DNA of 64,000 nucleotides from Bacteriovoracaceae bacterium (GTDB lineage Bacteria; Bdellovibrionota; Bacteriovoracia; Bacteriovoracales; Bacteriovoracaceae). Shown here piece after piece: positions 16,228 to 58,627 of this stretch. The position numbers were made by a program, and so were the translations under genes. Every line of letters begins with the position of its first letter. Within the stretch, counting starts at the first letter, position 1. The notes beneath the pieces are model-generated. The model was not told the origin of the DNA. It did not search any database and saw only the letters and a program-made list of their open reading frames with translations. Location of the stretch: assembly GCA_947446575.1 (NCBI GenBank), contig CANFHC010000007.1, positions 65,763-129,762 on the forward strand. The letters are read 5' to 3'.

Positions 16228-16229
16228 AA

Positions 16230-16808: not shown

Positions 16809-16872
16809 TTTTTATCCCCAAAATATTTTTCAAACAATTTTCTATTGCTGGAGAGATCTTTTGTTTGTAATT

Positions 16873-17500: not shown

Positions 17501-17513
17501 CGTTTTTCTATTC

Positions 17514-18178: not shown

Positions 18179-18258
18179 TTACTGAATAAATTCAACTTGT
18201 TGGTAATAGTCTGCAGAAACATTTGGAGTTCTTGAAATCTCTTTGAATTTCAAAAATT

Positions 18259-18444: not shown

Positions 18445-18509
18445 TAGTGGTTCGTCGATCTTTGCATGGCAGGCACCAATTGGAAGACTAGACGAACCAT
18501 TTAATTTAC

Positions 18510-19712: not shown

Positions 19713-19818
19713 AAAATTTTAATTTACCTCTAGATGCAAGTCAACGAAACTGAGGCTTTCAACCAAGTACAATACTCTATAGCTTTGACAAAATGTTCGG
19801 AATAGCGTACATTGACGT

Positions 19819-20109
19819 ATGGTTGTTTTTTAAAAATTTAAAGAATATTCAGATTGGTATGAAGAACAAACGGCCAAAATAAGGGCACAAATTGATGGCC
19901 GACTTGAGAAAATTCGCGACTTCGGCCATTACGGACATGTGAAGAAACTAAGTTCCGTTTTATATGAAATTAAATTTAACAATGGAAATCGAATTTATTA
20001 CACAGAGAGGATGATCAACGGAGAAGTATTGATTTTAATCCAAGGAGGAAATAAAAATGGACAAGACAAAGATATCAAAAAAGCCCAAAAAGCAGCCGAA
20101 AAAATCCAT
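19819..20109 (+). pseudogene. HigB-like 'addiction-module killer' (RelE/ParE-superfamily) gene with TAA at codon 5 (19831-19833)
   Basis: ATG GTT GTT TTT TAA is followed in frame by KFKEYSDWYEEQTAKIRAQIDGRLEKIRDFGHYGHVKKLSSVLYEIKFNNGNRIYYTERMINGEVLILIQGGNKNGQDKDIKKAQKAAEKI. This matches the conserved GDVK.VG.G..ELRI..G.GYRVYF....II.LL.GGDK..QDKDI.KAK pattern of HigB-type killer proteins. Confidence 0.6.
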
Positions 20110-20386
20110 GATGATTAATGGAATAGAACTTTTCAATCACGATCCATCCCTAATCTTTAAGAATCATAAAGAAATTAAGCTAGCACTCTTTGAGGCGTTG
20201 TTTGATGGAGACAAGGAAGCTTTTGTTGATATTTTATCAGGCTATGTGCGCGCACATAATATTTTAGAGGTTTGCCAGCGAACGGGTTTAAGCCGTACCG
20301 TAGTTTATGAGGCCATCAGTGATAATGGCAACCCATCGCTGGATACATTGTGTAAGATAATGACTTCGTTTAAAAAAGTGGCGTAA
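20057..20386 (+). CDS. HigA-like addiction-module antidote (HTH DNA-binding) protein
   Basis: The 109 aa gene overlaps the killer gene 3' end in the +1 frame. The C-terminal HTH reads ...VCQRTGLSRTVVYEAISDNGNPSLDTLCKIM. Confidence 0.6.
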   Translation: MDKTKISKKPKKQPKKSMMINGIELFNHDPSLIFKNHKEIKLALFEALFDGDKEAFVDILSGYVRAHNILEVCQRTGLSRTVVYEAISDNGNPSLDTLCKIMTSFKKVA

Positions 20387-20405
20387 ACACATTCACAATT
20401 AAAGC

Positions 20406-20597
20406 TCAAAAACCTTTCTTTTTAATATTTTGAAAATAATTTTGAATGGCCATCTCTGTCCACCCATAATGTTCTGCTAATCGTTGCCTCGACCATCCAT
20501 CAATAAAGCGTAGTTTTGCCATCTCCGCTAGATTCACTCTCAACTCGCGCCACTGGATCGTGTAAAGTGTCCCTGTCGTCAGTGGTTCTTCTACCTT
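20406..20597 (-). pseudogene. Degenerate second copy of the small HTH ORF (no proper start; MAKLRFIDGWSRQRLAEHYGWTEMAIQNYFQNIKKKGF*)
   Basis: It is about 70% nucleotide similarity to 18290-18430. An upstream in-frame TAG and the absence of ATG leave a 38 aa Met-initiated remnant. Confidence 0.4.
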
Positions 20598-20604
20598 ATT
20601 GCGA

Positions 20605-20634
20605 CGGGCACCATCTATACGACTAGTGCAAACT
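20605..20634 (+). repeat. att-type direct repeat, copy 3 (cgggcaccatctatacgactagtgcaaact)
   Basis: It matches the tRNA-Leu 3' end and flank (gcaccatctatacg.a.tagtg.aa) at 13966-13995 and 14137-14167. Confidence 0.65.
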
Positions 20635-20680
20635 AAATTGATTAATCTTCTTCTAACCTAAACATTTTTATCAATTTTTT

Positions 20681-21604
20681 TTAATGTCGTTTTAAAGCAG
20701 CATCTAGATAACTCTTAGCCACAAAAGGATTGGACAAAAAATTATTCATTTTTAAAATTTGTTCAGAGGAATAAAAGCTAGATTTATAGAACTTAGCATA
20801 TGACTCAATTAACCAGTAAGTGGCATCTGACGTACTAATTCTTAACTCCGCTGCAGGGTAAGACATAATTACATCATATACAGAATTGGCTATATTTTTT
20901 GTCTTAAAGTTAGCTACAAGATAAGAGGCATATCTCTTAATTCTTTCATCTTTTGATTTTAGTGCCTCAATTACTAAAGGTTCTAAAGACGATAACTGTT
21001 TTTTAGACATTACGACTGAGCCATTAGAATATGTAATTTTATCTTGCTTAAAGTTTGAACCTAATGCTTCATAAAATCTTTTATCTTTTCCAAATCCTAG
21101 GTCGTTTGCCATGATTGTAAAAGGACGATCTGGTTCATCGGTATTTGAAGAGAACAGTTCAACATTTCCAGAAAGTGGTGAAAAGTCATAATAAAAAAAC
21201 ATTGAAGATTTTAATTGTAATTTTTCGGAATCAAATTCACGAATCCCTCTATTCGTAGAAACGAAAATATTTCCTGAATTAGAATTTTTAACAAAATCAT
21301 TTACGAGAAGAGATTCAACTCCCTGTCCACCATATGAAAGTAGTAACTTGTGAGAGTTTTTATCATAGACTTGAAAACCATCTCCTCTCCAATCATATTC
21401 GCCACCAGAGCCAAATGCGATCCAGATCTGATTATCAAATTCTTTTACAGTAACAATTAAGCAGCCATACTCAGGACAGAGGTTAATTATCTGAAGTTTA
21501 AACTTATCGTTCTTTATTTTTATAAAAATTTCTTTGCAAAATGATCCTCCCTCTTGACTCTGATCTAAGTTTTGACATTTTAAATACTCAACATTGATAT
21601 GCAT
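20681..21604 (-). CDS. Hypothetical protein; the ORF track extends it to 21769 (362 aa), but the upstream part overlaps the ORF6N fragment, and the internal Met at 21604 (307 aa) is more likely
   Basis: It is a long open frame with no signal peptide and no family recognised by eye. Confidence 0.4.
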   Translation of the reverse strand: MHINVEYLKCQNLDQSQEGGSFCKEIFIKIKNDKFKLQIINLCPEYGCLIVTVKEFDNQIWIAFGSGGEYDWRGDGFQVYDKNSHKLLLSYGGQGVESLLVNDFVKNSNSGNIFVSTNRGIREFDSEKLQLKSSMFFYYDFSPLSGNVELFSSNTDEPDRPFTIMANDLGFGKDKRFYEALGSNFKQDKITYSNGSVVMSKKQLSSLEPLVIEALKSKDERIKRYASYLVANFKTKNIANSVYDVIMSYPAAELRISTSDATYWLIESYAKFYKSSFYSSEQILKMNNFLSNPFVAKSYLDAALKRH

Positions 21605-21713
21605 TTTATCATTTATCAGAAACTCATTAACTACCCCGTTTGCAGGTAGACCTCTTCTAGATTCAAGTCTAGGGTTAATGATTGATCCTGCTTTTAGCGA
21701 GAAAGATGTTGAA

Positions 21714-21959
21714 ATGCTATCAAGTGTTTTATCAAGTGACCGTGCTGTTGAAATTAATATCTCAATCATGAGAATTTTTACAAAACTTAGAAGTTTTCAT
21801 GCACTTGAAAGTAATTTAGCCACAGAACTCCAAAATTTTAAGGATAATGTAAATGGTCTATTTAAAGTTGTTTTTACTAGATTGGATGGCATTGAAGATG
21901 ATCTAACACCAAAACTTTCAGAGCAGCGAAAAAAAATTGGAATCAAGGTTGAATCTTAA
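21714..21959 (+). pseudogene. Truncated duplicate of the ORF6N-protein C-terminal half (N-terminal DNA-binding domain missing)
   Basis: MLSSVLSSDRAVEINISIMRIFTKLRSFHALESNLATELQNFKDNVNGLFKVVFTRLDGIEDDLTPKLSEQRKKIGIKVES is about 70% identical to residues 95-175 of 15627..16154. Confidence 0.5.
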
Positions 21960-42741: not shown

Positions 42742-43896
42742 TCATTGAGAAGGCTCCTTACTTTTCAAGTTTGTTAAAGCAGCGTTGAGCGTTTCATCTT
42801 TTTTAGCAAAACAAAAGCGAACCATTCGTGTCCCCTCATCAGATTTTATATAAAAAGCAGAAGTTGGGATCACCGCTACTTTTTTTTCACGAATAAGTTT
42901 TTGGCAAAATTCTATATCTGATTCACCATCTTTTAAAATGGCCATCGTAAAATATGTTCCCGCTGGTTTAATTACATTAAAGCCTACTTCTTTCAAACCA
43001 TTGACTAGAAGATCTCTTTTAGCACGGTATTGCCTCTTAAAATCTACTAAATATTCATCCATATTGGCTAAAGCTTCCGCCATGGCAACTTGTAGTGGGT
43101 GAGCTACGCAAAAAGTGGTGAACTGATGAACGTTGTGAATCGCTTTTATTATTTCACTCGGTCCACATGCCCATCCTACTTTCCATCCAGTTAATCCAAA
43201 AGTTTTTCCAGTAGAAGAAATCGTTATTGTACGTTTCCGTAAATTTTCAAAACAAGCAGTGGGGTTATGAGCTTGATCAAAAGTTAAAAACTCATAAACC
43301 TCGTCAGAAAGAATGTAGAAATCAAATTTTTCAGCAAGCTCTGAAATTTCTTTTATTTCTGCTGGAGAAAATATTTTCCCTGTTGGATTGTGAGGATTAT
43401 TCACAATGACCATTTTTGTCTTTACCGTTATGGCTGCTTTCAAATCAGACATTTTATAAGTGAACTCTGGAGCAAACAAAGTCACCGGTATGACTTTTGC
43501 TCCTGCCATTTTTAAGGATGCATAATATGAATCGTAAAAAGGTTCAAATACAACAACTTCGTCTCCTGGATTGATTAGGGCCATGGCCGCACAAAAGATA
43601 GCTTCTGTAGCACCATTAGTTACTACAATCTCACTAATAGGATCATAATCGAGGTTGTAAAAACGTTTATAGTTATTAGCAATAGCTGTTCTAAGAGGAA
43701 GAATACCAAGAGAGGGGGCGTATTGATTTTTCCCATCCGCCATTGCTTTTGCAGCCAAATCTCCCACCCACTTAGGGCCGTCGAAATCAGGAAACCCTTG
43801 AGAAAGGTTAATAGCTGAATTTTCAAGGGCCATTTTTGTCATGGTAGTAAAGATCGATTCTTTAAACTCACTGACGGTATGATTTAACGGCTTCAT
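42742..43896 (-). CDS. PLP-dependent aminotransferase, class I (methionine/kynurenine aminotransferase, YbdL-like); candidate final enzyme of methionine salvage
   Basis: ...INLSQGFPDFDGP... and an ...SSTGKTFGLTGWKVGW... PLP-Lys region are present. It lies divergently adjacent to mtnBDC. Confidence 0.75.
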   Translation of the reverse strand: MKPLNHTVSEFKESIFTTMTKMALENSAINLSQGFPDFDGPKWVGDLAAKAMADGKNQYAPSLGILPLRTAIANNYKRFYNLDYDPISEIVVTNGATEAIFCAAMALINPGDEVVVFEPFYDSYYASLKMAGAKVIPVTLFAPEFTYKMSDLKAAITVKTKMVIVNNPHNPTGKIFSPAEIKEISELAEKFDFYILSDEVYEFLTFDQAHNPTACFENLRKRTITISSTGKTFGLTGWKVGWACGPSEIIKAIHNVHQFTTFCVAHPLQVAMAEALANMDEYLVDFKRQYRAKRDLLVNGLKEVGFNVIKPAGTYFTMAILKDGESDIEFCQKLIREKKVAVIPTSAFYIKSDEGTRMVRFCFAKKDETLNAALTNLKSKEPSQ

Positions 43897-44009
43897 AAGG
43901 CAAATCCCTTAGGTTTAGTAGTCATTTTTTAGCATAATCTTAGTATTACTCATGGCCAAAAAAAGCAAGTTTTACTATAAAGAACTAGCCTTTAACCATA
44001 GGATAAAAA

Positions 44010-44657
44010 GTGTCATTCATCAATAGTGCTCAAGATTATGAAGAGATGAAAAAACTAGCGAGTCTAGTTCGCGTGATGAATAGTTTTGGGCATAATCCGG
44101 CCACTAGTGGTAACTATTCACTGCGCTCTAAAACGTCTCCAGAAATAGCTCTCGTCTCAGAATCCGGAATCGATAAAAGTAAATTTACTGAAGATAATTT
44201 CCTTCCGCTTTACTATAAAACAAGACAAATGCTTGATGATTATAAAAACTCAGGTCGTAAATCCTCTGATGAAACCGATATTCATTTAACTATTTATCAA
44301 ATTACAAATGCCAATTGTGTTCTCCACAGTCATATTCTCGATTCACTGTTATTTGCTGATCTTTTTTATGGAAAGCCTTATGCAACCATAGAAGGTTTAG
44401 AACTTTTAAAAGGTTTCAAAGGAATTAAAACTCACGAGTTAAAAATTAACATTCCTTGTTTTGAAAATACTCAAGACATAGCTCTTTTAGCAGAGCAAAT
44501 TAAACCGGCCATTTTAGCTCAAGAAAATAATTATGGACTGCTCTTAAGAGGCCATGGTGTTTATGTCTGGGGCGATAGTGTTGAAGAAGCTAAAAGACAC
44601 TTAGAAGTTTTTGAATACATATTTAAATATTACCTTAACTCTCGCAGAGGCTACTAA
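44010..44657 (+). CDS. mtnB: Methylthioribulose-1-phosphate dehydratase (class II aldolase fold)
   Basis: ...GHNPATSGNYSLRS... and the HSH metal ligands are present. It is the first gene of the mtnB-D-C cluster. Confidence 0.75.
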   Translation: MSFINSAQDYEEMKKLASLVRVMNSFGHNPATSGNYSLRSKTSPEIALVSESGIDKSKFTEDNFLPLYYKTRQMLDDYKNSGRKSSDETDIHLTIYQITNANCVLHSHILDSLLFADLFYGKPYATIEGLELLKGFKGIKTHELKINIPCFENTQDIALLAEQIKPAILAQENNYGLLLRGHGVYVWGDSVEEAKRHLEVFEYIFKYYLNSRRGY

Positions 44658-45178
44658 TGGCGACACTGTTTATTGCTCGTGAAAATGTAACTGTCACGGA
44701 TTTTAAATCCATTCAAAACTTACTAAAAGATCACGGAGTGATGATTGCAAAATGGGAAGCATCAAAGCCGCTAGCTAACGACGCCTCTCAAGACGAAATA
44801 CTTTCAGCCTATGCTCATGAGTTAAAACCATTTATGGAAAAAAATGGTTACGCCACGGCCGATGTTATCAATGTTCATCCCGAGACTCCAAATCTTTTGG
44901 CGATTAGAGAAAAATTTATGAAAGAGCACACTCACAGTGAAGATGAAATACGCTTCTTTGTGGATGGCCAGGGTAAATTTTGGTTTCACTTAGATAATGA
45001 AGAAATTCTTTGTGTCACTTGTGAGCGTGGGGACTTTATGTCGGTGCCTAAAAATGCTCGGCATTGGTTTGACCTTGCTCCTGGCTATTTTGTTAAGGCC
45101 ATTCGCATTTTTTCAAATATGGAAGGATGGGTTCCTAACTATACTGGTTCAGGTGTTGATGCGAGTTATAACCCATGA
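44657..45178 (+). CDS. mtnD: Acireductone dioxygenase (cupin)
   Basis: The ARD pattern HxH...E...H reads ...NVHPETPN...EHTHSEDEIRFFVDGQGKFWFH... Confidence 0.8.
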   Translation: MATLFIARENVTVTDFKSIQNLLKDHGVMIAKWEASKPLANDASQDEILSAYAHELKPFMEKNGYATADVINVHPETPNLLAIREKFMKEHTHSEDEIRFFVDGQGKFWFHLDNEEILCVTCERGDFMSVPKNARHWFDLAPGYFVKAIRIFSNMEGWVPNYTGSGVDASYNP

Positions 45179-45855
45179 AATATATTTTAATGGATGTAGA
45201 AGGAACAACTACTTCAATCAGTTTTGTCCACGAAGTTTTATTTCCCTATTCGATTGAAAAACTTCGCGACTATATCAATTCGCATTTTGACGACACTCCT
45301 GTGCAAGAAGCTTTACTAGAAACTTTCAACACTGCTTTCGAAGAAGAAAAACTTATCCTCAATCACAATGGCCTCATTGAAAAACTTCTTTCATGGGTTA
45401 GTATTGATAGAAAACATAGTGCTCTAAAAAAACTTCAAGGATTAATTTGGAGCGAAGGATATAAAGCAGGTGCTCTGAAAGGTCATGTTTATGAAGATGT
45501 GCCAGTTGCTTTAAAAAAATGGAAAGAAAGCGGACTGACTCTGGGAATTTATTCTTCTGGTTCTATTGAAGCTCAAAGAGTTTTATTTGGTTATTCAATT
45601 AGCGGCGATCTTAATAACTATTTTTCAAATAATTTTGATACAAGCGTTGGCCAAAAGAGAGTTGTGACTTCCTATCAAAATATTTTATCTGAATTAAAAA
45701 TTGAAGCAAACGACGTTCTTTTTCTTTCAGATATAGCTGAAGAACTAGATGCTGCTCAAGAAGTTGGGATGCAAACGTTACAACTAGTTCGATTAGGAGA
45801 TGTCCCATTTGCAGGGCACACGCAGGTAAAAAGTTTTAACGAAATTAATCCTTAA
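45175..45855 (+). CDS. mtnC: Enolase-phosphatase E1 (HAD superfamily)
   Basis: The N-terminal HAD motif ILMDVEGTTTSISFV is present, and the length is 226 aa. Confidence 0.8.
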   Translation: MKYILMDVEGTTTSISFVHEVLFPYSIEKLRDYINSHFDDTPVQEALLETFNTAFEEEKLILNHNGLIEKLLSWVSIDRKHSALKKLQGLIWSEGYKAGALKGHVYEDVPVALKKWKESGLTLGIYSSGSIEAQRVLFGYSISGDLNNYFSNNFDTSVGQKRVVTSYQNILSELKIEANDVLFLSDIAEELDAAQEVGMQTLQLVRLGDVPFAGHTQVKSFNEINP

Positions 45856-48362: not shown

Positions 48363-48791
48363 ATGAAAACGATGATTTCTGTCATTTTTTTATGCCTCCT
48401 TTTTTCTTGTGGAAAATCCCCACTCCAATTAAAAAAATCAAATGAGACTTCAGGTATAGCTGGATTAGAAAGTAAAAAAGTTTTTAGCAGCACTAACCAA
48501 AGCCTTTTTTTAAATTGGCTATCTCCAATTAATAGCGCAGAAGAAGGCCATGCTCTTTTAATCGTTAAAAAAAATCAGTTTGCTTCAGATCTGCCTTCGG
48601 ATTTTAAAATATTTCTTTGGATGCCAGATATGGGACATGGATCAAGCCCTATCTCAGTTAAAAAAATAGGAACTGGTTTATATGAGTTTTCTCAAATTTA
48701 TTTTATTATGGATGGATTCTGGCAACTAAAAATTCAATTAAAGAATGGTTCGACACTTCTAGATGAACAAATTTTTGAGTACAACTTGTAA
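48363..48791 (+). CDS. Lipoprotein paralogue of 47283..47717, a putative metal-binding protein
   Basis: The lipobox is LFSC|GK. ...WMPDMGHGSSP... and the C-terminal ...MDGFWQLKIQL... are shared with the paralogue. Confidence 0.45.
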   Translation: MKTMISVIFLCLLFSCGKSPLQLKKSNETSGIAGLESKKVFSSTNQSLFLNWLSPINSAEEGHALLIVKKNQFASDLPSDFKIFLWMPDMGHGSSPISVKKIGTGLYEFSQIYFIMDGFWQLKIQLKNGSTLLDEQIFEYNL

Positions 48792-49693
48792 TGAAATTCA
48801 TTTTCCTTCTTACTTTTATTTTATCCTCTCAAGTTCTTCATGCATCTTCTTGTTGTGGGGGAGGCTCTAGCTCATCACTGATAATAACAGGCGATAATAT
48901 TGAAGAATGGAACTTAGGAATGAGTTACCGCAATGACCTCGGACAAACTGACAATCTGGGCTGGGCCAGTTTTCATAATGACGGAATCACTGATCACCAA
49001 AGTGCTCTTAATTTTCAATACCAACGCCAAATTATTGAGCAGTTTCAGTTAGCAGCAAAGTCTTCACTTATCCAAAAAACGATAGAAAAACAAAATCGTA
49101 AAGAAGTAAAAAATGGTTTAGGAGATCTAGAACTGCAAGCTAGTTTTGAATTTTTGCCTGAGTTCACTTATTCTGCTTATAAGCCACGCGGTTTTGTCTA
49201 TTCCAAATTATCTATTCCTAATTCTCGCAGTCTTTATGATTCTAAGTCTGCCATCTATAGTGATGTAAGAGGCTCTGGCCTCTATTCAATTTCAATAGGA
49301 TCATTTTTTCTCAAAAGATTTGCCAGCACTACTTTAAAAGCAGGTCTTGAAGCTCAACATCTTTTTGGACGTAGTTTTGATCAAAGTCACCTCAATGACT
49401 ATAATAAAATCATTCTTCCACTGGGGATAACTTATTCATTTGACCCAATGCCAATTTCACTGGGATTTAACTCTACTTGGAATTATCAAACAAAAAAACA
49501 ACTGACAGGTGAAATCAACACAACTTCTTCTAAAGAATATTTTTGGGAGTTAGGCACATTTATTAATTGGACTGTTAACAGAGAAGAAACTTGGGGAATA
49601 ACTTATTCAGACTCAACACTTGTGGGGAAAAATATTAACTCACCTCTTTATCGAAGTTTCTCCTTGAATTATACACACGCAACAGAGCTCTAA
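48791..49693 (+). CDS. Secreted hypothetical protein with an N-terminal CCGGGSSSS motif (possible outer-membrane protein)
   Basis: It has a signal peptide and a β-rich composition. It is translationally coupled to the upstream gene by an ATGA overlap. Confidence 0.4.
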   Translation: MKFIFLLTFILSSQVLHASSCCGGGSSSSLIITGDNIEEWNLGMSYRNDLGQTDNLGWASFHNDGITDHQSALNFQYQRQIIEQFQLAAKSSLIQKTIEKQNRKEVKNGLGDLELQASFEFLPEFTYSAYKPRGFVYSKLSIPNSRSLYDSKSAIYSDVRGSGLYSISIGSFFLKRFASTTLKAGLEAQHLFGRSFDQSHLNDYNKIILPLGITYSFDPMPISLGFNSTWNYQTKKQLTGEINTTSSKEYFWELGTFINWTVNREETWGITYSDSTLVGKNINSPLYRSFSLNYTHATEL

Positions 49694-50262
49694 TTTTTTT
49701 CCTGATAACTGTCCCAAAGCAATACTTTTTCTAAAATCGCGATCAAAGCATGATTTATAGGTATTTCTTTTTCTAAAAAATGAGGATCAAGTGTTTCAAG
49801 GTTTTTATTCCAAATTTCGATAAAGGGAATTTCACTTTCCGCGAAATTAAGATCCTCAGTAATTTGATTTGTATCTTTAAAAACTTTACAAATATTATAT
49901 TCGATTTGATTATTTTTCCCATGGCGAGCACTTATTCCAAATGCTCTACAAAGAAATGGACGATGCTCATACTCTCGACAACTGCCTAATCCTTTTTCTT
50001 CATCTGTAACTTTCAAGAAAAGACATCTTCCGTCTTTTTTTATTTTTGCCTCTTCTAAATAAACTTCAGCTTTTTTTGTAGCAAGTAAATGCAGGGCCAT
50101 GGGAATTAGTTCATAAGGCGTGCAAGATATTTCAGGATTAAAACAACACTTCCCACAGCCTGTTGGGCAGTGAAGATTGTTTTTCTTTTGAAAGTCTCCA
50201 AAGACTTTGGAGACTTCTTCATACTTGTTCAAAATAGAAAGCGAGAGCTTTTCATCAATCAT
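49690..50262 (-). CDS. YkgJ-family (UPF0153) Cys-cluster zinc/iron-chelating protein
   Basis: The CxxCxxCC motif reads CPTGCGKCCFNPE, and further Cys are conserved. It is the last gene of the phosphonate operon and overlaps the upstream gene by 4 bp. Confidence 0.6.
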   Translation of the reverse strand: MIDEKLSLSILNKYEEVSKVFGDFQKKNNLHCPTGCGKCCFNPEISCTPYELIPMALHLLATKKAEVYLEEAKIKKDGRCLFLKVTDEEKGLGSCREYEHRPFLCRAFGISARHGKNNQIEYNICKVFKDTNQITEDLNFAESEIPFIEIWNKNLETLDPHFLEKEIPINHALIAILEKVLLWDSYQEKN

Positions 50263-50265
50263 AAC

Positions 50266-51378
50266 TTAAATGATTTTTTTAACTCTTAAATACTCTTCAA
50301 ACACTTTTAGAAAATCTTCAATGTCTTGAGGATATATGGCGCCAATATTTGAAAGTCTAAAAGTATTAACATCACCCACTTTACCTGGGTAAATAGTGAA
50401 ACCACGCTCGAATAAAAAATCGTGCATTTCGTTAAAAGAATAATTAGGACTTTTTGGATCCATAATAGCTGTTAAAAGTTTGGCATGGTCTTTTTCTTCT
50501 ACTAAAAAAGTAAATCCAAGCTCTAGGACTCTTTTCTTCATAATTTCATACATTGAAGAGTAACGTGCAAATCGCTGCTCCGGACCTTCTTCAAAATACT
50601 CTGTAATGGCCTGTCTTAAAGCATAGAGAGTTTGAACTGGAGGAGTAAAAAGAAACTGCTTGTTTTTTTCTAAGTACAAATGATTTTCAAGTAGATTGAA
50701 ATAAAAATTACGAGCTTTAATTTCTTTAGTTTTAAGAAGTGACTTTAGATTTGCAATGACAAAACTGATTCCTGCCATTCCTTGAATACATTTATTTGAA
50801 GAAGAAACGAGGTAATGAATATTGTCTTTTTCAACATCAATCATCATTCCTGCAAATGACGACATTGCGTCCACAATTGTTTCAACTCTATACTTTTGAG
50901 CTAAAGTAGAAATAGCACTCATTGGATTTAAAATACCAACTGTCGTTTCATGATGAATAAAAGCAACATGAGATATTTCTCCCTGATGAGCTTTAAAAAA
51001 CTTTTCAACTTCCTTGAGATCTAGGGCCAATCCCCATTTTTGATTATAATCAATATGACCTACATTATAAGCATCACAAATTTTTTGCATCCGCTCCCCA
51101 TAAGCTCCATTATTTAAAATAAGAACTTTTTTATTATGAGGAACAACTGATGTTAGGCATGCCTCTACTCCGCCAGTACCAGAGGATGTGAGCATTACAC
51201 ATGTATGGTTTTTTTCACCATAAGCAGCTTTGATTAAATCATTGCGAACTGAAAGAGTTAATTCTCCAAACTCCAATTCACGAGGACATATATCTGGAAC
51301 GACCATCGCATTTTTAACTGTATCAGTTGTTGTCGCTGGACCTGGATTAAGGAGAATATTTCGTTTTGTCTGAATCAT
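50266..51378 (-). CDS. 2-aminoethylphosphonate:pyruvate aminotransferase (PhnW/AepZ-like, class V aminotransferase)
   Basis: The N-terminus ...ILLNPGPATTTDTVKNAMV... is typical of PhnW-type enzymes. It lies in an operon with ppm and ppd. Confidence 0.75.
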   Translation of the reverse strand: MIQTKRNILLNPGPATTTDTVKNAMVVPDICPRELEFGELTLSVRNDLIKAAYGEKNHTCVMLTSSGTGGVEACLTSVVPHNKKVLILNNGAYGERMQKICDAYNVGHIDYNQKWGLALDLKEVEKFFKAHQGEISHVAFIHHETTVGILNPMSAISTLAQKYRVETIVDAMSSFAGMMIDVEKDNIHYLVSSSNKCIQGMAGISFVIANLKSLLKTKEIKARNFYFNLLENHLYLEKNKQFLFTPPVQTLYALRQAITEYFEEGPEQRFARYSSMYEIMKKRVLELGFTFLVEEKDHAKLLTAIMDPKSPNYSFNEMHDFLFERGFTIYPGKVGDVNTFRLSNIGAIYPQDIEDFLKVFEEYLRVKKII

Positions 51379-51401
51379 TTTAAAACCTCTAAATTAATAA
51401 A

Positions 51402-53375
51402 TTACCAAATATGCACTCTTTTATCAGCGGGTAAAACCATAGGATCAGTGTCAAGGCATCCAAATGCTTCTTTGAACCCTGAAAAGTGTTTTACCACTTC
51501 ATTGACTCTTGCTACGCCTAACGAATGTGGATCAGATTTTAAACGTAACTCACGCACACCTGGAAGCTGAACTTCACACCATGAGCGGGCATAACTTAAG
51601 AAGAAACTCTTTTGTTCTTTCTTTAATTCTGCTGGATTGAATTTGTTATTAGCAAAAGCGGCATCATATGCTGCTGTTAATCCAACCAAGTCTCCAATAT
51701 TTTCGCCTAAAGTAAATTCGCCATTCATTCCCGCTTTAGAATATTGATCGATTAAAGATTTTGTGAGTTCCTTAAATTTCTTTAAATCAGAGGCACTCAT
51801 CCAATCGTAGAGCTTTCCGTCAGCATCGTATTTTGAGCCTTGATCATCAATCCCATGCCCTAATTCATGGCCCACCACCATTCCGACTCCAGCCAGATTT
51901 TCAGTTAAGCTGCTCTCTTGTGAGTAGAAAGGATATTGTAAAATCCCTTGAAGCATTGTGAATTGGTTATAAGAAGGTTGATAAAATGCATTAACCACAA
52001 GTGGTTCAACGCCCTCCCACGAACGAATATCTTTTAATTCACTAAAATATTTAAATTCGCGCACATCAACAATATCATTTCTTCTTTCAGTATTCGCAAT
52101 ATAAGCATTTTCCGAATAATCCGCTGTCGGATAAAATTTCCAGTCTTCTAATTTAGCAGGGGCCACTAAACGCATAAAGGCTGATGAAATTTTTCGTTGA
52201 GCTTCTTTTTTTGCCTTTGGTGTAAGCCATGTGTTTTTAGCCAGTGAAGCTAAAATACTTCCTTTTATTTTCTCCACCATTTCAGCTACTTTTACAGAAG
52301 AGAAATTAGGAAACATCTTAGGCAATACAAGATAATCAAATTCAACACCAAAGTGATTCATAGTGATATCAGTACATTCTTCTTCTAATTCTGAACGTTT
52401 ATTTTTGCCACCTAAGAATTTATTTTTAAAAGCAAAAGCTTTATCGTAGAAAGTTGGATATCCCTTATCTAGTTTAGAATATAATTCATAAAAAATTTGA
52501 ATGGTTTTTAACTCTTCTAAAGAATAATTTTTTACCACATTAGCTAAAAATGGCATTGTCTTTGAATTAAGAACTCTTATCTTTGTTTCTTTGGGAACTG
52601 CTTTTAAAAATTCGTTGAGCTCTAGCTCTGGAAAATTCTTTAGCAACTCTTTTTTAGTTGTAAAATTTCTTCGAGAATAGGCAATACGAGATTCTGCGGG
52701 AAATAATCGATTTTCTTGATTCTCCACTTCATATTTTACAATCGTCTTAGCGCGCTCCTCAGGATTACTCACTTCAATAGTTTTAAAAAAATCTATCAAT
52801 AAGACTTCTAAGGCCTTTATTAACTCTGGATTTTTTGCATAACTTTTTTCTGGAAGTAACGAATACCCCACGCCCATCATTAAATCTGATTTTTTTGGGT
52901 CATCAAAATTATCGACTGAATAATAACCAATAAAACCAGCATTCCCGCTGTGAATTCGTTTAGTTTGAGAGGCAATCCAATCTTTTTTTGTTTCTACTTT
53001 TTCAAGATCTAATAATTTTTTAGCCACATATGTAACTTCTTCTTTTGCTCGTGCCTCTTTATTTACACAAGAAAGATAATAATTTCGAATTTCGCCGCCA
53101 ATTGCATTTTCAGCAGGAGCTTTCGTAAGCTCCTTAATATAATTTTTTTTGAATTCTAAAATGCGTTCTGCTGAGTCGCTAAAAGCAAAAGTATGCTTTC
53201 TTCTATCTGCTCGAAGCTGAAAGCTTTCAATAACTTTAGAACAAGCATGTTCATAAAGATTTTCGCATGGATTAATCTTTTCATTAATGGGGAATTCTCT
53301 TCTAAGTGGAATATCACTGCTGGCAGCAAGAACAACTCCTGAGAATAATAATGAAAGCAAAAAATATTTTAACAT
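51402..53375 (-). CDS. M13-family (neprilysin/PepO-like) zinc metallopeptidase, secreted
   Basis: It has a signal peptide. The HExxH motif is VGHELGHGIDD, and the downstream ...GENIGDL... contains the third-ligand Glu. The length is 657 aa. Confidence 0.85.
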   Translation of the reverse strand: MLKYFLLSLLFSGVVLAASSDIPLRREFPINEKINPCENLYEHACSKVIESFQLRADRRKHTFAFSDSAERILEFKKNYIKELTKAPAENAIGGEIRNYYLSCVNKEARAKEEVTYVAKKLLDLEKVETKKDWIASQTKRIHSGNAGFIGYYSVDNFDDPKKSDLMMGVGYSLLPEKSYAKNPELIKALEVLLIDFFKTIEVSNPEERAKTIVKYEVENQENRLFPAESRIAYSRRNFTTKKELLKNFPELELNEFLKAVPKETKIRVLNSKTMPFLANVVKNYSLEELKTIQIFYELYSKLDKGYPTFYDKAFAFKNKFLGGKNKRSELEEECTDITMNHFGVEFDYLVLPKMFPNFSSVKVAEMVEKIKGSILASLAKNTWLTPKAKKEAQRKISSAFMRLVAPAKLEDWKFYPTADYSENAYIANTERRNDIVDVREFKYFSELKDIRSWEGVEPLVVNAFYQPSYNQFTMLQGILQYPFYSQESSLTENLAGVGMVVGHELGHGIDDQGSKYDADGKLYDWMSASDLKKFKELTKSLIDQYSKAGMNGEFTLGENIGDLVGLTAAYDAAFANNKFNPAELKKEQKSFFLSYARSWCEVQLPGVRELRLKSDPHSLGVARVNEVVKHFSGFKEAFGCLDTDPMVLPADKRVHIW

Positions 53376-53429
53376 CGTGTCGTCTCCAATAGAAAAGGGC
53401 CATCCGGCCCTTAGTCATAATTTATTTTT

Positions 53430-54587
53430 TTACTTTGACTGAACAAAATCAGCAAAACGCACACTCACTTCCGCGGGAGTGACTTTTGGTCTACCTAATT
53501 TTTCCGGTGAGCCTTTTTGAGTTTTTAAGTGAATAAAAGTAGCTCCATTATTGGCCTTAACTTCATTCAATATATTTTCAAATTTAGAAAGTAAGTCTGT
53601 AGAATAAACTTGTTCATATCCAAAGCCTTTAGCAATTGCACCGAAAGAAATTCCTCCCGTAACAGTACCTTGTCCGCCAGTTGAATCGTGAGCTTCGTTG
53701 TCGATTAATAAATGGACTAGATTTTTGGGTTTAAAAGCTCCAACTGTGGCCATAGATCCAGTTCTCATTAAAAGGGCCCCATCTCCATCTACAACAATTA
53801 CTTTTAAATTTGGTTTGCAAAGAGCGATACCAAATCCAAAAGCCAGAGCACATCCCATCGATCCCACCATATAGAATTGGTTTTTAAGATCTCCTACTTC
53901 ATAAAGTTCACGTCCAGTTTTACCTGTTGTTGCAACGACTGCTACTTCTTGTCCCAATACTTTTTGCATAACTTCTAAAACAGGAGTTCTAGTTGTGCGC
54001 TCTTTGTATTCCAATTCAAAATGGTCTGTGTGACTGATAGAAAAATCTTTTTTAGAAGGAGCTGGTTTTTTCTGAAGTTTATAATCAGCTATGTCATCTT
54101 TTCTCATGACAAAAACAAATGGTTGATGATTTTTTTTCATATATTCATCAGCTAATTTTAGAGCTGGTATAACTTCCGCGTCAGTCTGTGGAAAATAAGC
54201 CCACTTCAGTCTCATTGTCTCCAGCATTTCAGTAGTAATTTGTCCCATCAATTCATGTTGAGGCTCATCATGAGCTCCACCAGGTTCACCACGAAGAGTT
54301 GTGATAATCATCACTGGTAAATTAAAAGTGTAAGTTAAAGAGGTAATGGGGTTAACAGCATTTCCCAGTCCTGAGTTTTGAAACATAACAACCGCACGCT
54401 TGCCGGCCACTGTTGCTCCAGCAGCGATTGCAATAGCATCACCTTCGTTAACGCTATCGATGAAATCAAATCCATCGGTATCTATAACGTAATTAATGAA
54501 TGGTTTTAAATATGAACAGGGAGTTCCTGTAAAAAAATTAAACCCCAATTCGCGAGCTGGTGTTAAAAACTTATCTGCTGTTATCAT
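53430..54587 (-). CDS. ppd: Phosphonopyruvate decarboxylase (TPP-dependent)
   Basis: The N-terminus ...FFTGTPCSYLKPF... matches Ppd. The TPP-binding GDG...N motif (…VVDGDGALLM…) is present, and the gene lies adjacent to the PEP mutase. Confidence 0.85.
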   Translation of the reverse strand: MITADKFLTPARELGFNFFTGTPCSYLKPFINYVIDTDGFDFIDSVNEGDAIAIAAGATVAGKRAVVMFQNSGLGNAVNPITSLTYTFNLPVMIITTLRGEPGGAHDEPQHELMGQITTEMLETMRLKWAYFPQTDAEVIPALKLADEYMKKNHQPFVFVMRKDDIADYKLQKKPAPSKKDFSISHTDHFELEYKERTTRTPVLEVMQKVLGQEVAVVATTGKTGRELYEVGDLKNQFYMVGSMGCALAFGFGIALCKPNLKVIVVDGDGALLMRTGSMATVGAFKPKNLVHLLIDNEAHDSTGGQGTVTGGISFGAIAKGFGYEQVYSTDLLSKFENILNEVKANNGATFIHLKTQKGSPEKLGRPKVTPAEVSVRFADFVQSK

Positions 54588-54602
54588 ACGATCCTCTTAA
54601 TA

Positions 54603-56243
54603 TTAAAATTTTTGTCCACGTGAAACGTCAGCGTAGTTATCTACATCTAACCAGTGTCCATCTATATACATGACATTGATTTTTACTTTTTTCTCTAGAA
54701 GCTTGTTCATCAAGTCTGGCAATTTCATTTTGCTGAAACCTGAATCATTTGATAATTCTGTTAAAGTTTTCGATAGGACGTCTGAACCAACTTTATTAGT
54801 TTTAATCAATCCAATCCACTCACCTTGAGCTTCTTTATTATCAGATGCTTTTCCAAATTTAATTCCTTTTAGCTCAGCATTTTCAGCACTAAAAAGAGTG
54901 TGGTTATGGGCACGAGAGCAATTTACGAAGTCACCTTCGTATCCAGGTGCTCTGTCTTTTAAAGCTGCATCAACTACAATGGTGATATCGCCTTTTTCTT
55001 CTAACAAGCGAGATAAGATATATTTTCTATAAAGAATATCACCGTATGAAATTACAGTATGATCAACAATTTCTTTTTTAGCTAAAAACAGTGATGATAG
55101 CTCACTTGTCGTTTCAAAGTTATCATTATCAAAATATTTAATATTTTGAAGCTTGAAAGCTTCTTTTTTGTATCCGCGAACAATTGAGATATCTTTGATG
55201 TCATGTTCATAGAAATGATTGATTGATTGCTCAATTAACGGTTTCCCATTGATATCAATTAAAACTTTTGGTTTATCTTCAGTTAGTTCTTTTAACTCAG
55301 CTCCGCGAGATGCCGCTAAGAAGATTGCTCTTGGTTTGTCAGCATCAGCAACTGATAAATATAATTTTTCAGCTGCTTCAAGTTCTTTGTCATTTTGAAG
55401 ACGGAAAAGCTCAGCCACTGAAACGATTTTATCTTCAACATTCATTAATGATTGTTCTTCAAAAATAGTCTTTGTTACATTTTGCATCGCTGTTACGGCC
55501 ATTCTCATTTGGTGGTTGGCCCAAATACAAACAGAAATATTCGCTTCTCTAAATGCGTTTGTCGGAGTTGCATAATATTTAGTTGGAACGATTACGATTG
55601 GACAAGACTTGCTTCTTTCTCCCCATTCTTTCATGAAAGCGAGAATTTCATCTGGCTTAGAAATTTTTGAGTGCATAAGAATTCCGTTAGCACCAGCTAA
55701 GCGATAAGCTTCAGCTCTCTTCAACGCTTCTCCCATTCCCCAACCAGCGATTAAAGCTTCAACTCTCGCGATGATATTAAAATCATCATCAAGTTTTGTG
55801 TCTTGACCAGCTTTGATTTTCCCACAAAATTCTTCTATGTCGGCAAGAGGCTGTGCCTCTGTTCTTAAGAATGAGTTTGTTTTAGGGAAAATTTTATCTT
55901 CAATACAAACTCCAGCAACTCCACGTTGTTCTAGTTTTGTAACAAGTCTTCTCATGTTGTTGAAGTTTCCGTATCCAGTGTCTCCGTCGAGAAGAATTGG
56001 AATCTTTGTTGCATCACTCATGAATTCTACTACTTCTAAAACCTGAGTCCATGAAGCTTCGTTATTATCACGAACACCAAGTGCCGCTGAAATAGAAAGT
56101 CCTGATCCCCAAATCCCTTTAAAGCCAGCTTCTTCTGCGATTTTCGCAGACATCCCATTATGTGCTTCCATTAAAAATTCTAATTCATTACTCATCAACA
56201 TATTTCTTAGTTGTGTAGTTTTTTTAACTGTAGGTGTTTTCAT
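54603..56243 (-). CDS. pepM: Phosphoenolpyruvate mutase fused to a C-terminal nucleotidyltransferase domain (a fusion type described for phosphonate-cytidylyltransferase)
   Basis: The N-terminal 290 aa carry the PEP mutase hallmark ...[13 protein letters not shown]... (the EDKxxxxxNS motif). The C-terminal 240 aa form an NTP-transferase fold (...[19 protein letters not shown]...). Confidence 0.85.
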
Positions 56244-56875
56244 ACAAAGGTTTCCTTATAAACATTAAATGCCATGTAGAGACTAAAAAGCACAATAAGA
56301 GCTCCGCAAGCACGAGAGAAATTAATAAAAAATCGTTCCGGTATTTTATTTTGATAACGAGAAACTATTCTTAAAAGTAAGTAGAACCATGAAGCCGATC
56401 CCATTCCTAAACCTAATGAAAGGCAAAAATAATTAAAGACCGTAGAATGAAAAAGTCCCCATGATTTAATAACGGCCGCAATTCCCGACATCGTTGCAAT
56501 CAAAGTTGGATTAGAAGAGTAAATGAGAACTCCCAAAAAAAAGAAGCTCGCCGTCTTTGGCTCTTTTTGCCCTTCATTGTGTTTCATATCGAAATTCTTT
56601 TTCCCCAATAATTCTTTAAGACCAAAACCTAAAAGAAAAAGGACTCCAACTATTTTTAAAATTAAAACCGTCTTGGCATTAAAATGAAAAAGAGAGAGAC
56701 CTGTCAGAATCACCATGAAGTAAACAAAGTCCATCAGCGATCCGCCAAGTGCGATAGAAAAGGCTGAACGGAAGTTATGTTTGATTAAAGTATTTACGAC
56801 CCATACGTTGATTGGACCAACGGGGATACAAATAAGAAAACCAACAATAAAACCTACGAGTAAAGCAATGATCAT
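56240..56875 (-). CDS. LysE/RhtB-type small membrane translocator
   Basis: It has six predicted transmembrane helices and an N-terminal ...[11 protein letters not shown]... motif. It overlaps both neighbours by 4 bp. Confidence 0.5.
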
Positions 56876-57627
56876 CTAGGCATACCTTCGAACAATCCTT
56901 TCGCTTTCTCTAAATCTTCTTTATTATCAATTTCAACCCAACGGTTATTAATCGTCCGATGAATATTCATATCGTGATTTAGAAGGAACTCGTTCATAAC
57001 GTGTTCCCAGTTTTTAGAAATATTTTTTTCTTCAGCTAAAAAAGATTTACAAGCAGCCAGCATGTCATCTCTATAATTTTTTGAAAATTTAAGAATCCCT
57101 ACCGCTTCACCAGCAAAAGTAAAACGCGTACGCTCTTCTTCGGTAACAGCTCGCTTATCGATCGTCATGCGGACAAATCCATCTTTGTCCAGCATAGCTT
57201 TGGCACATTCAATATCGTCGATTGAACTCTCGCCCACTAAAATTTGATTTGGTGATTTATCTTCTAAGAATCTTTTCAGTATCGCGGTATCGTAAATGAG
57301 ATCGGCATCAAACAGTAAAAAATCACCATGCGTTTTTTCTAGTCCGTAGTAAAAAGAATAAGTATTCCCTTTTACACGAAAATCTTCGTTGACTGCAAAA
57401 TGAATATCGAAGTCTGACTTAAATTTTTCTAAGTATGATTCAAGCACATCGCGTTTGTAACCAGTCACGACAACGACATTTCTAATCCCGACTGATTTCC
57501 AAGCTTCAAAATGCCAATCCATAAGAGGTTTGCCATTTACCATTAGTAAACTTTTCGGATTTTCTGTAATGTCCGCTATGCGAGAGCCATATCCAGCAGC
57601 GAGAATAAGTGCAGTATATTGTGCCAT
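56872..57627 (-). CDS. Stand-alone nucleotidyltransferase (LicC/MobA-like NTP-transferase family)
   Basis: ...ALILAAGYGSRIADITENPKSLLMVNGKPLMDW... is the G-x-G-x-R NTP-transferase signature. Confidence 0.75.
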   Translation of the reverse strand: MAQYTALILAAGYGSRIADITENPKSLLMVNGKPLMDWHFEAWKSVGIRNVVVVTGYKRDVLESYLEKFKSDFDIHFAVNEDFRVKGNTYSFYYGLEKTHGDFLLFDADLIYDTAILKRFLEDKSPNQILVGESSIDDIECAKAMLDKDGFVRMTIDKRAVTEEERTRFTFAGEAVGILKFSKNYRDDMLAACKSFLAEEKNISKNWEHVMNEFLLNHDMNIHRTINNRWVEIDNKEDLEKAKGLFEGMPR

Positions 57628-57634
57628 AAAATTA

Positions 57635-58564
57635 CTATCTCTTTTTTGCCCAAAGGCGATCCATTGTTCTTTTCATTGGATGGTGATGATCTTTTTTATA
57701 TTCATGAATTGTTACAGCATTATAATAATCAGAAAAACAAGTGCGCCCATGAAGAACTTGAGCATCGTGAGTTAATAAAATTTCACCTGCTGAAAAACTA
57801 TGGCGGTATTGATTATCTGAATGCTCTAAAATGGCATCGAGTGTATCAAGTGCATACATTTGTTCGTCTGTTAAAGGACGATCAAGTTTTAAATGTGCTG
57901 ATTCCATATAGGGACGAAGATGACGAAATTCTGGTTCACCTTTTTTATTATAAATAATTATCGGTGCTTCATAAGTCGCGTCAGCGACTCCACGTTGTTC
58001 CCAGAAAAAATTCTTTTCTAGTATTGCGAGAACATCAGGGTGTTTTTCTTTTAAAATTTTATGAACAATTAAAGCGTTCACTAAAATATTTTCACCACCG
58101 GCCATAGCGGGAGCGATACAAGCCAGAACAAGATATTCCCATTTATAGGGAACGTTAACGTTATCAGTGTGAATTGTTCCACCCTCTCTTGTCTGGTGAT
58201 AACGAGCACCTTTTAACATTGAATTATTTCTATCGCGATCATAAACGAGAATTGCTCTCTCGCCTGCTTCGTTTTGAATTAAAGTTTCACCTAAAACATT
58301 TCCAAGTAGCCAACTAATCGTTCTTTGTTCTTGAATTGTGTATTTATTGTGAAGATCGATAAATGGTTTTACGATGACTAATCTTTTTCCATTTTCTAAT
58401 TCATTTCTAACTTCCTCTACTTCACGTTTAAAAGTAGGACAGTCATCGTCTTCTAAAATTTTTGCATCTTCAACTTTGTTGTAAACATGCAAAGCTTTTA
58501 TATAGTCGTAAATTTCATTCTGAGCTTCACCCGAAAACGAGTAATAAAAATTATCATTTAGCAT
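57635..58564 (-). CDS. TauD/TfdA-family Fe(II)/2-oxoglutarate-dependent dioxygenase
   Basis: The HxD facial-triad motif (GGTIHTDNVNVP) is followed by ...GGENILVNA... (TauD-like spacing) and a distal ...LHGRT... His/Arg. It is the first gene of the operon. Confidence 0.7.
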   Translation of the reverse strand: MLNDNFYYSFSGEAQNEIYDYIKALHVYNKVEDAKILEDDDCPTFKREVEEVRNELENGKRLVIVKPFIDLHNKYTIQEQRTISWLLGNVLGETLIQNEAGERAILVYDRDRNNSMLKGARYHQTREGGTIHTDNVNVPYKWEYLVLACIAPAMAGGENILVNALIVHKILKEKHPDVLAILEKNFFWEQRGVADATYEAPIIIYNKKGEPEFRHLRPYMESAHLKLDRPLTDEQMYALDTLDAILEHSDNQYRHSFSAGEILLTHDAQVLHGRTCFSDYYNAVTIHEYKKDHHHPMKRTMDRLWAKKR

Positions 58565-58627
58565 GGCATCATCCTGTCTATGTTAGGGGAACAAAATAGC
58601 ACTCCCCTAGGGAGAATTCAACAGTAA

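Follow-up and report, generated by a model that had tools for sequence, protein, structure and literature searches.

An aminoethylphosphonate operon, probably supplying lipid head groups, in a Bacteriovoracaceae lineage that lacks the in-operon CDP-alcohol phosphotransferase of its relatives

We analysed a 64-kb stretch of a Bacteriovoracaceae assembly (GCA_947446575.1, contig CANFHC010000007.1, positions 65,763 to 129,762; hereafter the window, numbered from its first nucleotide), which carries on its minus strand a gene cluster for the biosynthesis and activation of 2-aminoethylphosphonate (AEP). The locus belongs to an uncultured Bacteriovoracaceae lineage, where it probably supplies the head groups of (hydroxy)aminoethylphosphonate lipids, and the gene pair for a CDP-alcohol phosphotransferase (CAPT) and a sphingolipid Δ4-desaturase (DES), which the nearest relatives keep inside the operon, most probably lies at a second locus. 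An initial annotation made from the letters had read the cluster as an eight-gene phosphonate operon and a candidate for the sphingophosphonolipid head-group pathway; its core, that a relative of Bacteriovorax makes and activates AEP with this operon to feed phosphonolipids, was right. It had overlooked the absence of CAPT, and it had given no role to the TauD-like gene, which belongs to the conserved core. Clusters of this type and their link to the Bacteriovorax stolpii lipid are already published (Li & Horsman 2022, PMC8942020; GCF 761 and Burkholderiales CDP-OH); what is new is modest, namely a lineage whose CAPT-desaturase module left the operon.

In the pathway that we propose, the PepM domain would convert phosphoenolpyruvate (PEP) to phosphonopyruvate, Ppd would decarboxylate phosphonopyruvate to phosphonoacetaldehyde and so pull the equilibrium, and AepZ would transaminate the aldehyde to AEP. 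A TauD-family Fe(II)/2-oxoglutarate (2OG) oxygenase may hydroxylate C1 of AEP, or of AEP carrying cytidine monophosphate (CMP-AEP), to give 1-hydroxy-AEP; the free PntC-type nucleotidyltransferase (NTase) would use cytidine triphosphate (CTP) to make the CMP-phosphonate donor; and a lipid alcohol, most likely ceramide, would then receive the phosphonyl head group through CAPT. The CAPT-desaturase pair would have been cleanly excised from the operon and would now most probably stand at the second locus beside an acyltransferase-like gene.

Eight consecutive minus-strand open reading frames (ORFs) lie at exactly the positions (49690-58564) given by the initial annotation, and searches of the window with Pfam and NCBIfam matched every one of its domain calls (Table 1). 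The 4-bp overlaps that it reported at most junctions occur at only two of the seven (NTase/LysE and LysE/PepM); the remaining junctions, in gene order, are gaps of 7 (TauD/NTase), 15 (PepM/Ppd), 54 (Ppd/M13), 23 and 3 nt.

Table 1. Features of the operon and its surroundings in window coordinates, in order of transcription
Feature	Position	Strand	Details
Candidate operon promoter	58593..58621	-	-35 TTGAAT (58621-58616), 17-nt spacer, extended -10 TGC-TATTTT (58598-58593)
TauD-family Fe(II)/2OG oxygenase, 309 aa	57635..58564	-	PF02668 75.9 bits (gathering score 27)
Free PntC/LicC-type NTase, 251 aa	56872..57627	-	PF12804 + PF00483 (NTP_transf_3/NTP_transferase)
11-nt scar	56876..56886	-	replaces CAPT (~870 bp) or CAPT + Δ4-desaturase (1,991 bp in L044)
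LysE/RhtB-family six-transmembrane protein, 211 aa	56240..56875	-	PF01810 70.5 bits
Full PepM-NTase fusion ORF	54603..56243	-	PEP_mutase + C-terminal NTP_transf_3
PEP mutase domain of the fusion	55359..56243	-	aa 1-295; TIGR02320 396.4 vs cut-off 319.55
C-terminal LicC-like NTP_transf_3 domain of the fusion	54603..55358	-	aa 296-546; PF12804 29.9 bits
15-nt PepM-NTase/Ppd gap	54588..54602	-	13 nt (54589-54601) unaligned vs L044
Phosphonopyruvate decarboxylase (Ppd), 385 aa	53430..54587	-	TIGR03297 405.7 vs cut-off 312.5
Hairpin and T-run in the Ppd-M13 gap	53395..53412	-	GC-rich, AAGGGCC-GGAT-GGCCCTT, then TTTCTATT
Secreted M13 (PepO/neprilysin-type) metallopeptidase, 657 aa	51402..53375	-	signal peptide; PF05649 + PF01431
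AEP aminotransferase, biosynthetic AepZ type, 370 aa	50266..51378	-	TIGR03301 410.3 vs cut-off 360.8
YkgJ/CxxCxxCC protein, 190 aa	49690..50262	-	last gene on the strand; PF03692 38.2 bits

The route from PEP over phosphonopyruvate and phosphonoacetaldehyde to AEP, as initially proposed, is borne out by three enzymes that all score above the cut-offs of curated equivalog hidden Markov models (HMMs). The N-terminal domain of the fusion is shown by these HMMs to be a PEP mutase and is predicted to convert PEP to phosphonopyruvate. It contains the catalytic-loop motif EDKxxxxxNS noted in the initial annotation (aa 115-124, window 55872-55901), the motif used as a criterion for PEP mutases (PMC6697681), and the models for its paralogues phosphonopyruvate hydrolase, methylisocitrate lyase and CPEP mutase all stay below their cut-offs (TIGR02321, 232.9 vs 374.4; TIGR02317, 134.1 vs 354.4; TIGR02319, 86.5 vs 420). 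Ppd has TPP_enzyme_N and TPP_enzyme_C (PF02776 and PF02775) in one chain encoded 15 nt downstream of PepM, and models of sulfopyruvate decarboxylase are below cut-off for it. The transaminase has an Aminotran_5 (class V) domain and, while it passes the AepZ model, it fails the catabolic PhnW model (TIGR02326, 341.9 vs cut-off 400.8).

The operon was compared with ~45 related loci; 40 of them came from a scan (one genome per species) based on an alignment of the TauD family, and these were searched by tblastn with ten window proteins. Those homologues of the TauD-like protein and the PepM fusion that carry a name are labelled Bacteriovorax, Bacteriovoracaceae or Bdellovibrionales, and the closest scanned loci show 86-87% protein identity, which means that the species of the window is not one of the representatives scanned. 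A seven-gene core with the order TauD, free NTase, CAPT, LysE, PepM-NTase, Ppd and AepZ is kept in Bacteriovoracaceae, in a metagenome-assembled genome (MAG) of Methylococcaceae (L020) and in a Sulfitobacter-labelled MAG (L032). The window operon is this core minus CAPT, plus two passengers. One is the M13 gene, an insertion between Ppd and AepZ that is found only in the window lineage and in L001, L002, L004-L007 and L014; L003, L048 and all distant loci lack it and have Ppd adjoining AepZ. The other is the YkgJ gene, which distant loci lack and whose identity in close relatives is only 50-60%. Thus the eight genes contain an AEP biosynthesis and activation core as first described, but M13 and YkgJ are clade-specific passengers and not members of the pathway. 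LysE, by contrast with these two, is a core member: all 26 non-self loci that cover the region have it between CAPT/DES and PepM, and in the window it overlaps both of its neighbours by 4 bp; we regard it as a putative transporter of AEP or hydroxy-AEP.

The gene that relatives have and the window operon lacks encodes a membrane protein of ~285 aa with a PF01066 CAPT domain. Of the non-self loci that extend over both NTase and LysE, 26 of 26 have it between these two, and the motif D(X)2DG(X)2AR(X)8G(X)3D(X)3D, as given for Drosophila CPE synthase (PMC9550178), is complete in all 30 recovered copies. In the window the NTase stop overlaps the LysE start (ATGA), leaving no room for CAPT. No CAPT was found anywhere in the 64 kb by tblastn with the relatives' CAPTs, by a six-frame search with the consensus as a regular expression or by a profile HMM of 30 CAPTs, whose best match in the window has 5.2 bits (E = 0.32) vs 431.8 bits for the positive control; nor was one found within 10 kb beyond the right end of the window.

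Comparison with L044, whose PepM is 96% identical to that of the window, shows what the junction looks like at the nucleotide level. Alignment of the two by blastn gives three colinear blocks, including window 58622-56887 against L044 4433-6176 and window 56875-54602 against L044 8168-10444, and the scar between these two blocks occupies the place of CAPT and the desaturase. The latter (PF08557 and PF00487, Lipid_DES/FA_desaturase) follows CAPT in L044, L048, L049 and L002; that close relatives keep both CAPT and this sphingolipid Δ4-desaturase within the operon strengthens the sphingophosphonolipid link made at the outset. The excision is clean: it adds four codons (GMPR) to the end of the NTase gene and recreates the translational coupling of NTase and LysE. 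An assembly artefact is ruled out, as the same deletion junction occurs with 100% identical proteins in four independent assemblies (ERZ19025975, SRR9214414, ERR3761232 and ERR10509558; loci L041-L043 and L046). A second replacement is seen between PepM and Ppd, where L001, L044, L048 and L049 have a gene for a GNAT acetyltransferase of 172-175 aa; 527 bp of L044 (GNAT) are replaced in the window by the 13 nt at 54589-54601. Decay of the operon after CAPT loss is ruled out by Tajima relative-rate tests, in which none of the six remaining core proteins is accelerated vs CAPT-bearing relatives (for example, 75 unique changes in the window vs 80 in L002 with L012 as outgroup); the window was never significantly faster.

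A candidate for the transferase was found outside the window. A search with the L044 CAPT recovered a tight subclade at 74-84% identity, two members of which are outside phosphonate operons and still paired with a desaturase. One of them, P0392 (L047 808-2764), is beside a two-component system. The other, P0394 (L050 8001-15590, L052 8499-11646), is downstream of a P-type ATPase gene and a gene for a 375-aa acetyltransferase-like protein, and L050 encodes further on a lipocalin, a GT2 protein and an FA_hydroxylase (OlsE-like). The P0394/P0517 module occurs with identical proteins in ERR10509558, SRR9214414 and ERZ19025975, i.e. in three of the four samples that have the deletion allele, and both the module proteins and the window proteins are recorded from NCBI, Logan and ENA. 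This co-occurrence makes a relocation of the CAPT-desaturase pair probable, as opposed to a loss. The GC content of L052 equals that of the window (0.356), with a tetranucleotide correlation of 0.986, and the identity profile of the module CAPT across relatives tracks that of the window core proteins (Spearman 0.83, with L044 nearest in both; four same-genome controls gave 0.72-0.92 and a fifth, L001, gave 0.38). Taken together, the organism of the window very likely encodes a transferase and a desaturase at this second locus. The earlier suggestion to look for a CDP-alcohol phosphotransferase in the genome led to none in the window and to a candidate copy elsewhere. The pair behaves as a mobile two-gene module that is found inside the phosphonate operon or elsewhere. 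The only blastn match between L052 and the window comes from paralogues of an ORF6N-domain gene, which also flank the relocated locus (L052 792-2115, ~66% nucleotide identity). The 375-aa acetyltransferase-like protein upstream of the relocated CAPT had no match in NCBIfam; it is possibly a bacterial ceramide synthase candidate.

Instead of relocation, the transferase could have been truly lost, leaving a truncated pathway whose soluble AEP, hydroxy-AEP or CMP conjugates are exported via LysE or used for something other than lipids. The failure to find CAPT in the window and in the 10 kb past its right end would fit this, as would the conserved LysE-family transporter-like gene translationally coupled inside the operon and the intact state of the remaining genes, which do not evolve faster. 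However, the identical off-operon module in three of the four deletion-allele samples, with its matching GC content and phylogenetic distance profile, speaks for a transferase in the same organism, and LysE is equally conserved in the relatives that have CAPT, so it is no substitute for CAPT. We consider true loss unlikely.

A product attached to a glycan or a protein rather than a lipid, as for the phosphonoglycans of Bacteroides fragilis PS B or the Treponema/Atopobium Pnt systems, appears even less probable. PntC-type activation is common to phosphonoglycan systems (PMC6697681) and the window operon itself has no lipid gene, but no LicD-type transferase or glycosyltransferase is in or beside the operon, the relatives carry an integral-membrane CAPT in theirs (the nearest also the sphingolipid Δ4-desaturase), and sphingophosphonolipids are documented for Bacteriovorax (PMC8942020).

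The operon encodes two NTases, which are only ~25% identical to each other and both conserved throughout the family. The initial annotation had implied CMP activation by both of them. The free enzyme is consistent with this: it is PntC/LicC-like, the consensus GXG(T/S)R-X4-8-PK is intact as GYGSRIADITENPK at aa 12-25 (GYGSR...PK, in the GXG(S)R-X7-PK form), the Asp of the DAD/ESD motif is kept, and so is the EID motif. The consensus, which includes Arg15 and Lys25 of PntC, is from Rice et al. 2019 (PMC6697681), where each of these two residues was needed for >90% of activity and replacement of Arg15 by Ala left Tde-PntC with <10% activity. The best PDB matches of the free NTase are PntC Tde1415 (6pd1, 57.3 bits) and then LicC (1jyk, 53.2 bits), a ranking that no more than hints at a preference for AEP (or a derivative) over phosphocholine. 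We predict that the free NTase is a bona fide PntC.

The domain fused to PepM is different. A loop SRGAE (window 55296-55310) replaces GXG(T/S)R and is followed by X8-PK, such that the equivalent of the Lys is kept and that of Arg15 is Glu; its best PDB match, LicC 1jyk, aligns to it without gaps (G to S, R to E). This type of deviation is kept in 12 of 12 fused homologues examined, with the acidic metal ligands retained. We then surveyed the loop more broadly, using an HMMER search of 1.84 billion representatives from which 150 diverse matches (P0241-P0390) were taken, those with the EDK...NS motif being counted as fused. Among the PepM-fused representatives with an aligned loop, none of 15 is canonical and 13 have no Arg at position 5, as compared to a canonical loop in 23 of 50 stand-alone NTase relatives. 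As the fused domain is without the consensus Arg, CMP activation by both NTases is unsafe for this domain; it resembles a LicC-type NTase in its working or descends from one, and its activity is uncertain. The pattern [S/T][R/Q/K]Gx[E/D] holds in the window family and in 13/15 diverse PepM-fused representatives, with the Lys and the metal-binding acidic residues kept. It is conceivable, although we give it a small chance, that the fused domain is a sensor of the CMP-phosphonate product or of CTP that gates PepM, or an enzyme of altered chemistry, with activation left to the free PntC; if true, this would explain why the clusters always keep two 'redundant' NTases. We note that an NTP_transf_3 domain is fused to about one third of all PEP mutases (Rice et al., PMC6697681), and in many of these enzymes the function of the PepM-fused domain may have diverged.

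The first gene of the operon encodes the TauD-family oxygenase, in which the HxD...H triad (H132/D134/H272) is invariant among 17 homologues. When its profile was compared with the sequences in the PDB, the phosphonate hydroxylase FrbJ (5eqn) came first with 73 bits, followed by 7n7v (TtnM), γ-butyrobetaine hydroxylase (BBOX), the 2-trimethylaminoethylphosphonate hydroxylase TmpA (6npb) and DfmD. An AlphaFold (AF2) model (pLDDT 87.6, pTM 0.86) has TtnM, FrbJ, CsiD, BBOX and TmpA as its top Foldseek matches (TM 0.57-0.71). Its best NCBIfam match is TmpA, with 43.5 bits far below the cut-off of 400. The gene is directly followed by the free NTase gene in 33 of 40 loci. Since FrbJ and TmpA are among the nearest solved relatives, and given the operon context and the Burkholderiales and B. 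stolpii literature, we propose that the TauD-like protein is a putative C1-hydroxylase of AEP or CMP-AEP and the source of 1-hydroxy-AEP. Distant members of the family (L026, L035, L036 and L038, 41-49% identity) sit in unrelated contexts, and a second TauD paralogue (L018 3610-4518, 58% identical) is found on another contig of the MAG LF-bin-6, beside an O-antigen-ligase-like Wzy_C gene and not in a phosphonate cluster; the argument from family context therefore applies mainly to members with at least ~50% identity.

A catabolic or salvage cluster, in which PhnW-type transamination and oxidative C-P cleavage of the PhnY*/PhnZ or TmpA/TmpB kind would act on prey-derived AEP, is hardly credible: AepZ/PhnW enzymes are reversible and TmpA is the best NCBIfam match of the oxygenase, but that match is far too weak, PepM and Ppd exceed biosynthetic cut-offs, the transaminase is of the AepZ and not the PhnW type, and no HD-domain PhnZ/TmpB, PhnX, PhnA or PbfA is encoded in the operon or on either side of it. 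HD matches among the 64 window ORFs scanned are confined to RelA/SpoT (3798-5990), and the lack of an HD-domain partner in the operon or flanks excludes a catabolic pair of either type.

The clusters most similar in gene content are the Burkholderiales_CDP-OH clusters, which contain a Ppm-PntC fusion, Ppd, an AEP transaminase (AEPT), a 2OG oxygenase, a second PntC and lipid genes, and are predicted to make 1-hydroxy-AEP lipids (PMC8942020). The window cluster likewise holds the Ppm-PF12804 fusion, Ppd, AEPT, the oxygenase and a second PntC together (58564 to 50266), without PF01066 in the cluster. The logic of seven genes, with a fusion plus a free PntC, an α-ketoglutarate/Fe(II) oxygenase and a phospholipid-type transferase, is the same in the Burkholderiales CDP-OH or Group 1 clusters; the window family differs in being from another phylum, in having a LysE-type membrane protein in its core and, in its closest relatives, a Δ4-desaturase that points to ceramide and not to a glycerolipid, and the window cluster differs further by the missing CDP-alcohol transferase. 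For the Group 1 phosphonolipid clusters, Yu et al. 2013 is reportedly a source along with Li & Horsman 2022. By its description, the cluster of B. stolpii DSM 12778 (GCF 761, Ppm WP_102244880) is also similar, being of the AEPT type with a Ppm-PF12804 fusion and from the same family-level taxon, and this organism makes a 1-hydroxy-AEP sphingophosphonolipid that has been linked to its Ppm-PF12804/AEPT cluster (PMC8942020). The GC content of the window (35.6%) and best identities of ~87% indicate a different species or genus.

At the level of single proteins, the free NTase shares the LicC fold family with PntC Tde1415, Ari1348 and LicC, has its best PDB match in Tde1415 and keeps the motif intact, but its identity to PntC is low (57 bits), and the window has in addition the PepM-fused copy with SRGAE and no Arg15 equivalent. 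The TauD-like protein has the TauD/CsiD-type fold and the HxD...H triad in common with FrbJ (5eqn), TmpA (6npb) and DfmD (9j0j), yet it is only 16-19% identical to them and, with 309 vs ~380 aa, lacks the domain that BBOX/TmpA have at the N-terminus; an equally good match is TtnM, whose substrate is not a phosphonate. TmpA hydroxylates C1 of an aminoethylphosphonate derivative in a catabolic context, whereas the context in the window is biosynthetic. The likeness of the relatives' CAPT to Drosophila CPES consists of the family motif only. We propose that it also works in the same way, with a cytidine-activated donor passing an ethanolamine-type head group on to ceramide, except that the donor here would be a CMP-phosphonate. 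In the window the gene is missing.

Chemists have known of phosphonolipids for decades, among them the 1-hydroxy-AEP sphingolipids of Bacteriovorax, and the gene clusters have been inventoried. To our knowledge, no step after AEP (hydroxylase, second NTase or lipid transferase) has been demonstrated so far. The CAPT that travels with a sphingolipid Δ4-desaturase is a candidate ceramide-(hydroxy)AEP synthase, and the TauD-family oxygenase is a candidate biosynthetic source of hydroxy-AEP. The window lineage, with the supply genes and the transfer genes at two loci, is a natural experiment that aids both the assignment of functions and the design of heterologous expression.

Several points weigh against a head-group supply operon for hydroxylated AEP lipids whose transferase is encoded elsewhere in the genome. 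We infer the acceptor lipid, ceramide or diacylglycerol, with ceramide the most likely. What the TauD-like protein acts on, and with which regiochemistry and stereochemistry, is a prediction for a whole family known from sequence alone; the configuration of the 1-hydroxy-AEP head group of B. stolpii is itself reported as unknown (PMC12366243, PMC8154272). B. stolpii, the sole organism with a characterised 1-hydroxy-AEP lipid, turned up neither in the genome scan with the TauD pattern (40 loci) nor as a named match of the homology searches, so that its use of the TauD-like oxygenase family would be a presumption. The link between the module and the genome of the window comes from sample co-occurrence and composition, and one of the samples (ERZ19025975) also holds another Bacteriovorax (L044). 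Finally, the hairpin between Ppd and M13 may partly insulate M13, AepZ and YkgJ, which could uncouple AepZ from the five genes upstream.

As for transcription, a candidate extended -10 σ70 promoter with a palindromic spacer is found upstream of TauD. The spacer contains the palindrome CTCCCTAGGGGAG, which could be the operator for some regulator, and downstream of the promoter are a Shine-Dalgarno sequence AGGA and the TauD start codon (ATG at 58564). The 23-nt promoter-like motif is unique in the window, with 0 copies expected by chance. The architecture is kept upstream of TauD in L001, L002, L003 and L044, and a second copy of the motif is upstream of LysE in the desaturase-bearing L044 (8080-8113) and L002 (~13610-13640). 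A hairpin at 58617-58601 was considered as a terminator and rejected in favor of the promoter, given that the motif is conserved at both of these places in relatives. A divergent gene of ~400 aa lies between DUF2141 and TauD in L001, L005 and L014, and a gap of equal size (~1.35 kb) is present there in L006 and L007. We conclude that TauD is the first gene of the operon and that ABC-F/DUF2141 are a unit of their own.

Within the operon, a single transcript of all eight genes is not assured because of the hairpin and T-run in the 54-nt gap between Ppd and M13. Only its position suggests that this hairpin is terminator- or attenuator-like, as terminator-like sites in the window (11, vs 8.5 expected from shuffling) are not above chance.

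No head-group transferase or sphingolipid gene (LicD, CAPT, Spt or ceramide) was found elsewhere in the window, so that the LicD-type, Spt and ceramide genes mentioned in the initial annotation are not among its genes. The other genes encode malic enzyme, RelA/SpoT, guanylate kinase, a σ54 activator, a methyl-accepting chemotaxis protein, signal peptidase, TetR/OEP/AcrB efflux components and BipA. A class I/II aminotransferase at 42742-43896 was considered as Spt and rejected, as it is a methionine aminotransferase (NF006569, 425.6 vs cut-off 420). It belongs to a group of methionine-salvage genes (42742-45855), in which the minus-strand aminotransferase is accompanied by plus-strand genes for a class II aldolase (MtnB-like), an ARD dioxygenase and a HAD enolase-phosphatase-like protein. 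A lipid-modifying pair with a 4-bp overlap is found at 12090-13849, consisting of a PlsC-type acyltransferase (PF01553) and a NAD-dependent epimerase/dehydratase-family gene; searches gave the pair no specific assignment, and it has no obvious link to sphingolipids.

The region 14000-21800 has a GC content of 0.31-0.32 vs 0.36 and many ORFs without a Pfam match, and contains an ORF6N-domain gene (15627-16154); it is possibly a genomic island or prophage remnant. On the plus strand at 48791-49693, convergent to the operon and overlapping the YkgJ stop by 4 bp, is a gene for a secreted protein of 300 aa with the N-terminal sequence SSCCGGGSSSS and no Pfam or NCBIfam match. L004 has a homologue of this protein in the corresponding place (68%), and L009 and L013 have more distant ones there. 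Upstream of the window gene are YtkA-like and thioredoxin-like genes. Among the more distant loci, single-cell or MAG contigs of Pelagibacteraceae (SAR11; L034 1165-7101, L037 10001-14552 and L039) have TauD and NTase genes together with a TylF-type methyltransferase and CAPT, to which L034 adds a TupA-like ATP-grasp gene and an unfused PepM upstream, and L037 a B12/radical-SAM gene; this variant seems to represent another phosphonate pathway, for a lipid or glycan that may be methylated.

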